64,000 bases of DNA from a virus (Duplodnaviria; Caudoviricetes), in IMG/VR virus record IMGVR_UViG_3300028186_000155, one strand, 5' to 3'. The notes under the pieces are model-generated. The model searched no databases. It had not been told where the DNA came from and saw only the letters and a list, made by a program, of their open reading frames with translations. Numbering within the stretch: the stretch's first letter is position 1; the number at the start of each line of letters is the position of its first letter. The translations under genes were made by a program, and so were the position numbers. Shown one piece after another: positions 858-45,318 of the stretch.

Positions 858-2834
858 TTAGCGGAACAGTTTCAAGCCTTGCAGCTTGCTTTGGAAGTTG
901 GAAGGTTGCGACTGCTGCGCCGAAGCGGTTGCGAGTTCGCTTTCCTGTTTTTGCACTTGTGCAGGAGTTTGCACCGGACGGCCCATCGACATTGCCGAAG
1001 ACGCGGTAGCAACCACATTTTTCGGTTCGATTTGGGTTACAGCGACCGCCATCTGATTCTGAATTACTTCGTCGTATTTCAGGATCTCACCAGCTTTAGC
1101 CAGAATGGCAGCGTGGTATTCCGGCGAGTTTTCGATGAATGCGCGTTGCAGCATTTCTTCCGCGCCCTGAATGCCGATGGATTCCAGCGAACTGGCCAAA
1201 GCGGTCATGATCGGGTTTTGCGTATCGCGGAAATAACCGGTATTGATACCGTGCGCGGCGGTGGCCAGTGCGCGGTTCATACGGTCGCCCAGCGTTTGCT
1301 GGTCACGGGCGCTGGCTTCGGCCAGTTGGGTGCCTTGATCGGCTACTTGAGTAGCGATTTGTTCGGCCACAACTTGATCGATTTGCAGAACCGGTTTGAT
1401 TTCTTCGAAACGCAGTTGAGTCAGCGCGGCTTGCACACCTTGTTCCGAGGCAACGGCAGTGAAAGCACGGCCAAACGACGGATCAGCGAAAGTGGCAGGG
1501 TTTTCCGAAGCCGATGCAACAGCTTTTGCGAAAGGAATGCCGTTGTGGAATGCCATCCAAGTAGGTTCGCCTTGAACGTTACCTACATAATTAACATCAA
1601 CAGATTTTCCTTTCATGTCGTTGGCTGCGATGGAAACGAAAGAGGCTTGGATTTCCACCGGGGCCGCTTCGGTTTGCTGTGCAGTTTGTTCGACATTTGC
1701 AGTTTCCACGTTGGTGGTTTCTGCGGCGCCGGTTTGTTCAGCGTTGGCAACGGCAGTTTCCTGTACGTTGGCAGCTGTTTGTTCGGCGTTTTCGGTTTGT
1801 TCTTGAGTTTCTTGCTCGGTCGCGCTGGCGGTAGCCATTTCTGGTTTTACCTTTTTACGAACGCCACCTTTTTTCGCTGGTTTGTCAGCGGCGGCGAGGC
1901 CCAAAGACAGGTCATCGTCGTCCTCTTCTTCGAGGTCGTCGTCTTCCTCTTCTTCCTCTTCGTCGTCTTCCTCTTCGTCGTCTTCAGATTCTTCATCTTC
2001 GTCGTCGAATTCTTCGTCGTCTTCTTCCTCTTCTTCATCATCGGAGGCAGTAGCGGCGAAATCAGCAGAAGCAACAGCTTTTTGTTCATCGCTGAACTCT
2101 TCTTCAGGATCTACAAGACCCATCGAAGTTACAGGGCAGAAAATTGCCTTGTCGCTGTTGGAGACGATGTGCATTTCCGGGCCGTCATCGCTGGCAGTTA
2201 CCAGATAATGCACTTTCAGTTTGCCGTTTTCGGCGCTGGAAGCTACGGCCAGTTGTGGCACATAGTTTTCAACGGCTTCAGCAGCGGTTGCACGGAAAAT
2301 GTCGAAGTTCACAGGCTGGTTCGAAACCACCGTGTGATCAACGCATTGTGCGGCGAAAGTCTCGCAGTTACCGCTGGCCAGTGCGCGGAAAGCTTCGATA
2401 GCTTCAGCACGCGTGGCAGCAACAGCAACCAGCATTTCTTTCGGTTGTGGTTTGTTTTTCAAGTCGGCGTCTTCCATTTTGGGGAGGTCGGAAGCGCAAG
2501 CCGGGCATTTATCCAACAGTTCAATACTGTCTGCGATAACGTGAGCGCCGCAACCCGAGGAACAAGCCTGATAGAATGCGTCCATATCGCCATCGGCGGA
2601 TGCGGTCGCTACCATTTCGTGCTTTTCGTCTTCCGGCACGGCCACCATTTCTTCCCCGTCAACGGGGTTCAATAGTTGCATATCGGTGTTGGCGGTAGCG
2701 ATGGCAAATTCACCATCCTTGCTTTCCAAAACACGATATTCGCCGGAAGCAACGGCACTGAATTGCTCTACTGCTTGCTCTTGGTTGTCAGCCATAACGA
2801 CGATGCCGCGCAGGCGCGAATTTCGTTTCGACAT
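858..2834 (-). CDS. prohead core/scaffolding protein
   Basis: 658 aa, very acidic (long D/E tract), Ala/Gln-rich, about 15 x-[VTL]-A-S motifs, located in head module. Confidence 0.65.
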   Translation of the reverse strand: MSKRNSRLRGIVVMADNQEQAVEQFSAVASGEYRVLESKDGEFAIATANTDMQLLNPVDGEEMVAVPEDEKHEMVATASADGDMDAFYQACSSGCGAHVIADSIELLDKCPACASDLPKMEDADLKNKPQPKEMLVAVAATRAEAIEAFRALASGNCETFAAQCVDHTVVSNQPVNFDIFRATAAEAVENYVPQLAVASSAENGKLKVHYLVTASDDGPEMHIVSNSDKAIFCPVTSMGLVDPEEEFSDEQKAVASADFAATASDDEEEEEDDEEFDDEDEESEDDEEEDDEEEEEEDDDLEEEDDDDLSLGLAAADKPAKKGGVRKKVKPEMATASATEQETQEQTENAEQTAANVQETAVANAEQTGAAETTNVETANVEQTAQQTEAAPVEIQASFVSIAANDMKGKSVDVNYVGNVQGEPTWMAFHNGIPFAKAVASASENPATFADPSFGRAFTAVASEQGVQAALTQLRFEEIKPVLQIDQVVAEQIATQVADQGTQLAEASARDQQTLGDRMNRALATAAHGINTGYFRDTQNPIMTALASSLESIGIQGAEEMLQRAFIENSPEYHAAILAKAGEILKYDEVIQNQMAVAVTQIEPKNVVATASSAMSMGRPVQTPAQVQKQESELATASAQQSQPSNFQSKLQGLKLFR

Positions 2835-3259: not shown

Positions 3260-3284
3260 AGCAGTCTCCTTGGAGCTACAGGTT

Positions 3285-3291
3285 TAAATTA
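3285..3291 (-). promoter_or_regulatory. TAATTTA late-type promoter motif
   Basis: Same motif upstream of several structural genes; lies just downstream of a terminator. Confidence 0.5.
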
Positions 3292-3310
3292 GGGCAAACA
3301 GAAATTTTGG

Positions 3311-3352
3311 GCAAAAAAAAGCCCACTCAGGCGGGGGAACCTGAATGGGCTT
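3311..3352 (-). terminator. intrinsic terminator
   Basis: AAGCCCATTCAGG-loop-CCTGAGTGGGCTT followed by a T run. Confidence 0.85.
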
Positions 3353-3400
3353 AAATGCTGTGACATAAAGAGATAAAGCTAGCCTACCCTCGTAGACTAT
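3311..3400 (-). ncRNA. candidate ~90-nt small RNA
   Basis: TAATTTA motif at 3404-3410; 5' hairpin TAGTCTAC-GAGG-GTAGGCTA; U/C-rich linker; terminator. Confidence 0.3.
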
Positions 3401-3407
3401 GAATAAA

Positions 3408-3677
3408 TTAGCGACCTTTTACAAACTGCATATCCAGCACGAATGCTTCGTTTGCCGCCTGTTCGGCCAAAGTCAATTGGCCTTGGGTACGGCGTGGATT
3501 GCAGCACATAAAGCAGCCCGAACGCCCGCAATTAAATGCATTGCGTTTTGCCCACTTATTGGAGGGCTTAATACGGTCAGATGCGTGCGGATAGTTATTC
3601 CAATCTTTCACGTGCTTTGCAATCACGCGATTACGATTAGAAATACGCTGCTGTTTCGCCAGTTTATCAAACGACAT
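3408..3677 (-). CDS. small basic Cys4 protein (CGRSGCFMCCNPRR), putative Zn/RNA-binding
   Basis: 89 aa, K/R-rich; AGAGG RBS 7 nt upstream of ATG. Confidence 0.7.
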   Translation of the reverse strand: MSFDKLAKQQRISNRNRVIAKHVKDWNNYPHASDRIKPSNKWAKRNAFNCGRSGCFMCCNPRRTQGQLTLAEQAANEAFVLDMQFVKGR

Positions 3678-3682
3678 GATGT

Positions 3683-3736
3683 AGCCTCTACAGCGATGCC
3701 CGCCCCGGTATTGGAACGGGCTATCGTGTGTAGGCT
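3683..3736 (-). promoter_or_regulatory. RBS-sequestering RNA hairpin (candidate translational attenuator)
   Basis: Arms AGCCU..CGAU.GCCCGUUCC and GGGGCGGGCAUCG..AGGCU; G-U pairs favour the minus-strand RNA; 3' arm contains the SD of 3408..3677. Confidence 0.6.
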
Positions 3737-3763
3737 TTAAATGTCTGGACGTTCGTCATTCAT
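3737..3763 (-). CDS. leader micropeptide MNDERPDI
   Basis: ATG AAT GAC GAA CGT CCA GAC ATT TAA with AAGGTG RBS; stop codon abuts the hairpin. Confidence 0.55.
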   Translation of the reverse strand: MNDERPDI

Positions 3764-3773
3764 AAAACACCTT

Positions 3774-3902
3774 TTAGATATCGGGGCGAACGTCTTTTGG
3801 TGTGGCAATCACGCCAACGCCCGGACCCTGTTTGATACCGAGTTTCTCAGCACGTTCGCGGGCGGCTTTTGCTTTGCGATACATGATCAGAATTTCAGCC
3901 AT
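3774..3902 (-). CDS. 42-aa peptide ending KDVRPDI
   Basis: ATG at 3902 with AGGGA RBS, just after the protease stop. Confidence 0.6.
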   Translation of the reverse strand: MAEILIMYRKAKAARERAEKLGIKQGPGVGVIATPKDVRPDI

Positions 3903-3915
3903 TTTGTGTTCCCTG

Positions 3916-4725
3916 CTAGATGGATTTTGGATCAAGGATAATATCCCCGATTGCGCTAACATACGACGGATCACCGTAGCCCTGTTTGTAGCCGTCAACG
4001 CCCGAACGCCCACCCACATATTCCAGCAACGACAATTCGTAACCGGTAATGTTTTGGCAGCGACGATAAACCAGATTGCCATTAGGCATTTGATACGTTG
4101 GTTTGCGCGGGCGAGTGTGCGAACACGGATTGCCAACGCCTTTACCGGCCACATGGCCGCAAACCGAACAGGTATAACGGTTGTACAGCATGCCCATGGA
4201 ATAGGTATTCAAAACCCGATCCAAAACCAATTGGCAACGCTTAGGATCAAGGGTGCGATCCAGTGCCCCGAGCATTACCAGTTTTTGAATGTTTTTAAAC
4301 CGGGTTGGGCGCAGGTACGAACCGAGAATCAGACCACGAACCCATTCAGGTTGGTGCTGGTGCTCAACGTACATTGGGCGGCCTTCCCACGTTTTGTATG
4401 CGAGCCGTCCGCACGGTTCATTCCACGCAGTGAATTGCTTCAAATCTACCGAATCCCCGTTGGTATTGGGAATCATGGTGATCATTGCAGGAACCGCCAC
4501 CAGAATATAATCGCTGATATTCTTGGACAAACCGTGGTATTCCGCTGCACGTGGCAACCACACATTCGCTTCCAAGTTTTCAGCTTGATCAGTACCAGAA
4601 ATCGAAGCACTGATAGGCAATTGCCCGGCTTCGTTTAGGCGTGCACCGTGTAGCTCAGTGGTGATCGGCGTCCCCATATTGAACGCCGTGGCCACATAGT
4701 CATTGCCGTAAATGTCTTCGATCAT
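3916..4725 (-). CDS. prohead (maturation) protease, assemblin/HK97-type fold
   Basis: EHQH and YSMGMLYNRYTCSVCG (catalytic-Ser motif followed by CxxC), then ELS; head-module position. Confidence 0.7.
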   Translation of the reverse strand: MIEDIYGNDYVATAFNMGTPITTELHGARLNEAGQLPISASISGTDQAENLEANVWLPRAAEYHGLSKNISDYILVAVPAMITMIPNTNGDSVDLKQFTAWNEPCGRLAYKTWEGRPMYVEHQHQPEWVRGLILGSYLRPTRFKNIQKLVMLGALDRTLDPKRCQLVLDRVLNTYSMGMLYNRYTCSVCGHVAGKGVGNPCSHTRPRKPTYQMPNGNLVYRRCQNITGYELSLLEYVGGRSGVDGYKQGYGDPSYVSAIGDIILDPKSI

Positions 4726-45201: not shown

Positions 45202-45273
45202 CGCTAGATCCTCGAATAAGGTTGTGTTTAGTTGGCCTTAATCGCAGCGCCGCGATGACCAGTCAACTAAGAA

Positions 45274-45280
45274 TAAATTA
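45274..45280 (-). promoter_or_regulatory. TAATTTA late-type promoter motif
   Basis: Upstream of the H1-like gene; context CTAATTTATTC identical to 3401-3411. Confidence 0.55.
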
Positions 45281-45318
45281 GTATTATTGGAAAATACTAA
45301 AATATCTTGGTCGGCCCG

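Follow-up and report, generated by a model that had tools for sequence, protein, structure and literature searches.

The locus described here lies in the window, a stretch of 64,000 nucleotides of viral DNA (Duplodnaviria; Caudoviricetes; IMG/VR record IMGVR_UViG_3300028186_000155). It contains two very small open reading frames (ORFs) that end in the residues RPDI followed by a TAA stop, an RNA hairpin, and a gene for an 89-aa basic Cys-knuckle protein, which we refer to as the Cys gene and the Cys protein. The best explanation for this arrangement is that two separable phage modules are combined in the locus, one made up of the RPDI micro-ORFs and the other of the Cys gene with its own leader. 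The genome to which the window belongs comprises 314,224 bp with terminal repeats and is that of a Pseudomonas jumbo phage of the Lu11/HRDY3 type; at the locus, the window is 81% identical to Pseudomonas phage HRDY3 and 74% identical to Lu11. All genes in this region are carried by the minus strand, in the order protease, 42-aa ORF, MNDERPDI, hairpin, Cys gene, terminator and head genes, with 13 nt between the protease stop and the 42-aa ORF. The six-residue ending, which we call a tip, occurs here in two types, V (DVRPDI) and E (DERPDI); EEW[VI] and DEYEG[ILFY] are sister tips. The features of the locus are as follows.

3916..4725, minus strand: gene for the prohead (head maturation) protease, the upstream neighbour (phrog_18299, E 1e-91; annotated in HRDY3 as head maturation protease)
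3774..3902, minus strand: 42-aa ORF, consisting of a basic N-terminal helix, a short Gly-rich stretch and the V-type tip DVRPDI-TAA (motif 3794..3774); an annotated CDS in HRDY3
3768..3773, minus strand: Shine-Dalgarno (SD) sequence AAGGTG, common to MNDERPDI (ATG 5 nt downstream) and to the +1-frame ORF (ATG 9 nt downstream)
3737..3763, minus strand: 8-codon ORF MNDERPDI-TAA with the E-type tip, ending directly at the hairpin; the GAC AUU codons contribute to the basal helix
3721..3759, minus strand: 12-codon leader ORF in the +1 frame, whose stop is the UAG at 3723..3721 in an internal loop of the hairpin 5' arm
3736..3683, minus strand: 54-nt hairpin with AGAGG in its 3' arm
3673..3745, minus strand: full leader structure in three tiers (basal helix that takes up the AUG, middle stem with the SD sequence, G+C-rich apical stem-loop), -37.1 kcal/mol, z -6.5
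3685..3689, minus strand: SD sequence AGAGG of the Cys gene, paired in the hairpin 3' arm
3408..3677, minus strand: 89-aa basic Cys-knuckle protein, a copy of phrog_4499 without a tail (E 2.1e-14)
3319..3411, minus strand: downstream boundary, formed by a conserved TAATTTATTC... element (TAATTTA) with a small stem-loop at about 3411..3377 and then an intrinsic terminator at 3352..3319; kept in all Lu11-like loci

Selection on the RPDI peptides

An initial annotation of the window, made from the letters of the sequence and a list of ORFs, had described the two micro-ORFs with their shared RPDI-UAA ending, and all coordinates and sequences that it gave were found to be right. It had also placed the conservation at the level of the peptide. 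This holds for the two copies in the window, whose RPDI codons differ solely at third positions (CGC CCC GAT ATC and CGT CCA GAC ATT), and it holds between relatives: in the window, HRDY3, L004, L003, Lu11 and L020 (L numbers designate individual loci of the comparison) only synonymous differences are found within the six codons, and the residues ahead of the motif are unrelated. A degenerate 21-mer for D[EV]RPDI-TAA matches twice in the window, where 0.00 matches are expected from shuffled sequences, and nowhere else in the 314-kb genome.

The micro-ORFs and the hairpin recur in HRDY3, in Lu11 and in two IMG/VR contigs. Both RPDI ORFs are kept in HRDY3 and L004, and MNDERPDI differs there only synonymously. 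In L003 the V copy is kept and the E copy (MNDERPDI) has been destroyed by a 7-nt deletion. The counterpart of the 42-aa ORF ends in an EEDW[IL] tip in L003 and L004, and DVRPDI stands on a separate ORF of 13-15 codons that overlaps this stop. Lu11 has an unannotated 10-codon ORF with a DERPDI ending, in overlap with the stop of Lu11_0070; the DVRPDI end of Lu11_0069 lies against the hairpin.

IMG/VR was scanned with a codon-degenerate pattern for each stop codon, and a scrambled pattern of equal information served as a control. The scans matched 20 loci with TAA, 22 with TGA and 4 with TAG, compared to 6 for the scrambled control. About 5-10 matches per scan are due to chance and lie within long ORFs in another frame; L013, L015, L016, L018, L026, L059/L071/L074, L061/L064 and approximately half of the TGA matches were rejected as such. 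The remaining matches are either tiny ORFs with a Met 0-3 codons upstream of the motif or true C-termini of proteins. The curated set contains 39 motif instances, and the whole comparison covers about 40 loci. All synonymous sites vary among the 39 instances (Arg is encoded by CGT, CGC, CGA or AGG, Pro by all four of its codons, Asp by GAT or GAC), including a switch from CGN to AGG in the V motif of L039. The stops are TAA in 23 instances, TGA in 13 and TAG in one, and in two instances the motif is internal. The tip takes several forms, namely ORFs of 7-20 codons that often overlap the preceding stop, the C-terminus of phrog_4499 proteins, the end of one membrane micro-protein, and the two internal occurrences.

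In 596 Gb of prokaryotic genomes, M-x-D[EV]RPDI followed by a stop gave only three chance-like matches, and several further real cases were found in metagenomes. Due to this near-absence from prokaryotic genomes, we regard the RPDI micro-ORFs as a feature of phages, mostly virulent ones. D[V/E]RPDI is a phage-restricted tip, and what is conserved in it is the peptide. Nothing relevant on the motif or on gp358/gp359 of phage 201phi2-1 was found in the literature. Between the RNAs of the twins, GACGUUCG of the D-V-R codons pairs in the window with CGAACGUC of the E-R-P codons in the second copy, which might have explained why a V and an E type exist. This pairing is broken in HRDY3, L004 and Lu11, and the explanation was therefore rejected.

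The hairpin leader and its upstream ORFs

That the hairpin at 3736..3683 hides the SD sequence of the Cys gene had been seen in the initial annotation and was borne out by folding: AGAGG is paired, and the AUG is buried too. The region folds with -49.2 kcal/mol (z -5.8), and the 81-nt leader alone reaches z -6.5. For the free RNA of the window, folding predicts that the SD region is unpaired with a probability of 0.20 and the AUG with a probability of 0.10. A basal helix had been missed, in which GACAU (3745..3741) from the last sense codons of MNDERPDI pairs with the AUG of the Cys gene (GACAU/AUGUC). The RPDI-bearing loci form this helix from GACAU(U) of the last two sense codons and (A)AUGUC of the Cys start. 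In the RPDI copy that abuts the hairpin, the last two sense codons are always GAC ATT, and these complete the basal helix; copies farther away have GAT ATY.

A three-tier hairpin that ends a few bases ahead of the AUG is present in all 13 loci compared, which come from Lu11-like phages, 201phi2-1, D6, Psa21 and three metagenomic relatives with 40-49% protein identity. Folding against shuffled sequences gave z values of -3.2 to -7.3 and the same architecture in 12 of the 12 loci folded. The apical stem covaries (GC to AU, UA and CG compensations), the outer stems keep their complementarity with unrelated sequence between loci, and the 3' arm is purine-rich and SD-like throughout. The hairpin is a conserved 5' leader of the Cys gene. 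No Rfam covariance model matched the hairpin at E up to 1; weak sub-threshold matches were confined to the downstream terminator region. The hairpin core and the Cys gene are single-copy in the genome, and the idea of a repeated element was dropped, the core being unique in the window as well.

These loci also bear on the mechanism that the initial annotation had put forward. It had read RPDI-stop as a termination-arrest peptide: a ribosome dwelling there would cover the 5' arm, and the Cys gene would be switched on when termination is slow. The homologues were predicted to carry both a PDI-stop ORF and the hairpin upstream of the gene. The second half of this prediction came out in 13 of 13 loci, with a covarying apical stem; the first half failed outside the window, HRDY3, L004, Lu11 and one copy in L003. 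Eight loci have the hairpin without an RPDI leader (L006, L007, D6, Psa21, 201phi2-1, L077, L079 and L080). Thus, an upstream RPDI ORF is confined to the subclade of the window, and the reading of RPDI-stop as the dedicated arrest leader of the Cys gene is not supported. Across the homologous loci, the leader peptide is not inherited together with the gene and structure that it was supposed to regulate; the hairpin and the gene persist with unrelated leaders. A very short Pro-containing peptide that is strongly conserved next to a stop codon, a stop that abuts the hairpin in the window and in Lu11, and micro-ORFs that are absent from cellular genomes, as expected of a phage-specific device, would all suit arrest. 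However, TAA, TGA and TAG are all used, which argues against release-factor specificity. Moreover, RPDI ends ordinary proteins after a Gly-rich linker, and in 201phi2-1 and L034 its position is internal, with eight more codons after DERPDI. To our knowledge, no known arrest motif matches RPDI, and the literature search found none. We thus consider arrest at RPDI very unlikely.

Another component of the earlier proposal fared better, namely that a ribosome ending an upstream ORF must open the hairpin. The MNDERPDI stop abuts the stem, and a second ORF, absent from the initial annotation, extends into it. This ORF (3759..3721) lies in the +1 frame, starts 4 nt after MNDERPDI and uses the same AAGGTG. 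In 10 of the 13 loci, an SD-preceded ORF with an ATG start ends at the nearly invariant UAG or UAA of the loop, 42-47 nt before the AUG. D6, Psa21 and L006 have stand-alone leaders of 7-11 codons with strong SD sequences and without RPDI. When a ribosome on the MNDERPDI stop was imposed as a folding constraint, the predicted probability of being unpaired rose from 0.10 to 0.66 for the AUG and from 0.20 to 0.34 for the SD region. The +1-frame peptide is not conserved because its second codon positions are the synonymous sites of the RPDI frame. As the RPDI frame is conserved and the +1 peptide is not, selection acts on the product of the RPDI frame; the +1 ORF keeps only its open frame and its stop position, apparently so as to bring ribosomes into the stem.

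The hairpin might instead serve mainly as a site for RNA processing or protein binding, with upstream translation being incidental and the RPDI ORFs unrelated neighbours. It could be cleaved in the manner of RNase III sites between T7 genes, or it could be the operator at which the Cys protein represses its own synthesis, comparable to the replicase operator to which the MS2 coat protein binds. An irregular stem of some 25-30 bp whose internal (UAG) and apical loops are both conserved, and which stays with the same gene across very different phages and occurs once per genome, would fit such a site, as would a small, basic, Cys-knuckled protein and the separability of hairpin and RPDI. In structure, it resembles the T7 RNase III hairpins and the coat operators of MS2 and PP7 (long irregular inter-cistronic stem-loops with conserved loops directly upstream of a start); it differs in that it occurs in a single copy with one specific gene and does not recur between many genes. 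On the other hand, the ORFs ending at the loop stop and the exclusive use of GAC ATT by the abutting copy argue that ribosomes are meant to enter the structure. We rate a mainly processing or operator role as unlikely; it is compatible with translational coupling, and the two may act together.

RPDI tips and the phrog_4499 family in other phages

The Cys protein has the core NCGxxxCxxCxNPR and belongs to phrog_4499 by profile match. An exhaustive search for this family yielded 52 representative clusters of about 85 aa, and six residues are invariant in 50 sequences (K44, C50, C55, C58, N60 and R62). An AF2 model (mean pLDDT 81) places the three invariant Cys in a loop that connects two long helices. 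Neither the Cys protein nor the 42-aa ORF matched Pfam or NCBIfam. Foldseek found no match of the model in the PDB, a wide VIA-align search gave generic helical matches only (best Z 2.9), and the profile found nothing below E 0.6 among PDB sequences. The prediction of a complex between the 89-aa protein and the 42-aa ORF product, made with alignments, returned a score of 0.00 and 'no answer', which counts neither way. The basic, knuckle-like character of the protein and its private RNA hairpin together suggest that it may bind RNA and control its own synthesis. The initial annotation had put it forward as a possible ribosome-rescue or antitoxin factor, an idea that the results neither support nor contradict.

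Several members of the family have a Gly-rich extension that ends in a tip: DERPDI in P0009, REEDWI in P0018 and DEYDGI in P0004 and P0012. RPDI is fused as the C-terminus of the Cys protein in P0009, L023, L044 and 201phi2-1, and it is found just downstream of the Cys gene in L012, L014 and D6. In phiKZ-like and other jumbo phages, the Cys gene is followed by strings of micro-ORFs. The following arrangements were found.

L012: the Cys protein ends in EEDWV, TGATG starts MDVRPDI, and a terminator follows
L014 and D6: the Cys protein ends in a DEYEG-type tip, with a DERPDI micro-ORF later on; L014 has an ORF ending in EEEWV in between
L044 and L023: the Cys protein's own end is RPDI
201phi2-1: gp358 (a 29-aa tail-like peptide ending in DEYEGY), hairpin, an unannotated 86-aa Cys protein ending in DVRPDI-TGA, a frame-overlapping ORF ending in EEEWV, an ORF with DERPDI and then ITREEDWI, terminator

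The Cys protein of 201phi2-1 joins phrog_4499 with an hhalign probability of 96.6%. It lies at 259769..260029 of NC_010821 (L058:2634-2894) without an annotation, where the numbering jumps from gp358 to gp360, and the next two micro-ORFs (L058 2872-2910 and 2901-2972) are likewise unannotated. A V and E pair is found in at least six lineages (the window clade, Lu11, L019, L039, L034/201phi2-1 and L044). Since the tips form tails of the neighbouring protein family elsewhere, the two RPDI ORFs of the window are best read as a detached tail of phrog_4499 that has been placed upstream.

The tips are frequently packed together. DEYEG[FILY] micro-ORFs overlap or adjoin RPDI ORFs in the metagenome contigs L067, L070 and L072, where the DERPDI ORF overlaps a DEYEGF ORF in another frame, and in 201phi2-1 (gp358). 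Two tips in overlapping frames of the same 40-60 nt (DERPDI with DEYEGF, or DERPDI with DVRPDI) were observed in L067, L070, L072, L019, L039 and L077, and in such loci GAT GAR of the E type itself provides the ATG of the +1 ORF. A near-identical junction, GAAGA(G)GAATGGGTATGAA, in which the stop after EEEWV is overlapped by a start for MGM..., is present in L003, L014, L034, L058 and L062 and is thus common to Lu11-like and phiKZ-like phages; this sequence similarity suggests horizontal movement of the micro-ORF string.

Recoding (read-through, +1/-1 frameshifting or hopping) might also join the overlapping micro-ORFs, which would yield longer alternative tails or fusion products instead of separate peptides. 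Read-through of the TGA after DVRPDI would fuse two ORFs in 201phi2-1 and L034, where the next ORF continues in frame; no stop interrupts the +1 frame over the motif, and this frame often reaches another tip (L019, L039, L067/L072, L077); and relatives have fused and split versions of one tail. However, the junctions contain no slippery sequence, and most of them are stop-start overlaps (ATGA, TGATG, TAATG) with an SD sequence, which suits reinitiation. Recoding is the least probable of the readings considered here. A hop over the hairpin of the type known from T4 gene 60 was rejected, as ATT...ATC flank the hairpin in the window only and HRDY3 and Lu11 have no in-frame Ile codon before the AUG.

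The two parts of the locus also occur independently of each other. Four complete phages (41-158 kb) contain an RPDI micro-ORF and no member of phrog_4499 at E 0.01. Where the Cys gene is missing, RPDI micro-ORFs were found after PhoH-like genes (three contigs), after the gene for the large subunit of ribonucleotide reductase (RNR; two contigs), and, in a T7-like phage, between the genes for the scaffold and the major head protein; RPDI is also the end of a small membrane protein ahead of a dNMP kinase gene. The PhoH-associated ORFs (L019, L039, L040/L069) stand directly after the PhoH-like gene and before a terminator, and they are twins in two of the three contigs. In the syntenic L020 (IMGVR_UViG_3300047469_000103), MDVRPDI follows the protease and is itself directly followed by the TAATTTA element, without hairpin and Cys gene. 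Because L020 lacks exactly this pair between MDVRPDI and the element, the hairpin and the Cys gene constitute an optional cassette. L020 comes from a 300-kb relative, the exact gap lies at about 2790-2900 (motif strand), and the missing pair amounts to about 330 bp. Conversely, L006 and L007 have the hairpin and the Cys gene without RPDI. The occurrence of RPDI without hairpin and gene, and of hairpin and gene without RPDI, leads us to describe them as two separable modules.

Arrest can also be restated in a general form, in which D[EV]RPDI and its sister tips are a portable, phage-specific module for parking ribosomes, and slowed termination keeps open whichever RNA structure follows, be it a terminator or a hairpin over an SD sequence. 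In L012, L008, L011, L019, L039, L040, L046, D6 and L077, no more than about 10 nt separate the stop from a terminator-like hairpin, and strong structure is found within 45 nt after 39% of RPDI stops versus 19% of control ORF ends (p 0.03). Still, about 60% of the instances have no strong downstream structure, and several are directly followed by the SD sequence of the next gene or by a promoter. In our opinion, a portable parking module is highly improbable. If it were true, it would act on the SD/AUG hairpin here and on intrinsic terminators in PhoH, RNR and other operons elsewhere, and many unrelated phages would tie downstream expression to the translation state of the host by one means.

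Two observations on the surroundings of the locus may be added. Ahead of three gene starts, the window has the motif CTAATTTA[TA][TA]C (3377-3411, about 3282-3292 and 45271-45281, minus strand). It has 5 matches versus 2.0 expected, and 8 of 100 shuffles reach 5, so the count alone is not significant. The copy after the Cys gene includes the stem-loop TAGTCTAC/GTAGGCTA and is better conserved among Lu11-like phages than the flanking genes; the element may be a phage promoter or a small RNA. Furthermore, a 658-aa protein at 858-2834 (minus strand) matches phrog_20988, which is labelled 'ATPase', and the corresponding region of HRDY3 is annotated as two 'ATPase' genes. The protein contains long runs of E/D and numerous repeats of ..VA[TS]AS-like motifs, is extremely acidic, and occupies a position typical of a scaffold protein. 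The label seems doubtful.

Proposed translational coupling and a family of tip peptides

We propose the following reading of the locus. The RPDI ORFs would be translated micro-genes of a phage-restricted family of short tip peptides. Elsewhere, this first module is found as the flexible Gly-rich tail of the Cys-knuckle protein, or as stop-start-coupled or frame-overlapping micro-ORFs beside the Cys gene. The second module is the Cys gene with its own leader, composed of the hairpin that buries SD and AUG and a short ORF stopping at the loop UAG. In the window the modules overlap, with MNDERPDI and the +1 ORF on one SD sequence and the MNDERPDI stop at the foot of the hairpin. Ribosomes finishing either upstream ORF would melt the lower stems and expose SD and AUG, and synthesis of the Cys protein would therefore be coupled to upstream translation. 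Special arrest by RPDI would not be required. The basic Cys protein may in addition use the gene-specific hairpin as its operator, and docking or autoinhibition, in free or tethered form, may be what the tip peptides do. For this combination, in which leader and hairpin couple translation and the tips are peptide products in their own right, we see about equal grounds for belief and doubt.

The doubts arise from several points. The ORF that invades the hairpin is missing in 3 of the 13 loci, and a ribosome on either stop is predicted to open the SD region only in part, to a degree that differs between loci. MAFFT alignment of the 13 leaders recovers the apical stem only, and the alignment-scored covariation is limited to that stem. 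No recognisable fold relative of the Cys protein was found. A function for the tips is purely conjectural, and peptides of 7 residues would be unusually short for stable ligands. The enrichment of structure downstream of RPDI stops suits a cis-acting role as well as, or better than, a peptide product.

Comparison with known systems places the two modules in different company. The arrangement in the window resembles TnaC, SpeFL, MsrDL, PepNL and the ErmCL-type hairpins in having a short ORF for a conserved peptide whose stop lies against an SD-hiding structure that ribosome occupancy would open. In contrast to these systems, RPDI is not tied to the regulated gene (it may follow the gene, be fused to it or be internal, or the gene may be missing) and has no stop-codon specificity, and the hairpin occurs with unrelated leader peptides. 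Classical translational coupling through a structure that sequesters the translation initiation region is known from the long-range pairing between the coat and replicase cistrons of MS2 and from the coupled ribosomal-protein and atp cistrons. The present leader shares with these a paired distal SD and AUG, an upstream ORF that stops at or inside the 5' arm, and conservation of the structure with covariation. It differs in having two overlapping upstream ORFs in different frames here, one of which encodes a selected peptide, and in moving with one small gene as a cassette across unrelated jumbo phages.

The tips have other parallels. SSB, T7 gp2.5 and T7 gp4 have a flexible linker and an acidic C-terminal tip that ends in a hydrophobic residue. 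Members of phrog_4499 with a fused tail are built in the same way, from a basic domain resembling nucleic acid-binding domains, a Gly-rich linker and an acidic tip whose last residue is I, V, L, F or Y. However, there is no sequence homology, RPDI contains Arg and Pro, and the tips are also found as free products of 7-20 residues. As in heptapeptide genes of the mccA type, which are followed by a terminator, very short ORFs with conserved peptides are often located just before a terminator, but unlike mccA they have no gene for an MccB-like enzyme nearby.

The control logic that we propose for the Cys gene, coupling and possibly autoregulation, is of a known kind, and what is surprising is therefore the peptide family and not the switch. 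The leader-ORF and hairpin element of the phrog_4499 gene lies outside Rfam and is common to the model phages 201phi2-1, Psa21 and Lu11. A motif of six residues is under selection in genes of 7-20 codons in very different phages (Lu11-like and phiKZ-like jumbo phages, phages of 100-160 kb and T7-like phages). These micro-genes are nearly all without annotation, are almost absent from cellular genomes, and no description of them was found in the literature. In phrog_4499, a single family of small proteins, the C-terminal tail is interchangeable with these micro-peptides, which are packed with sister tips in overlapping frames.

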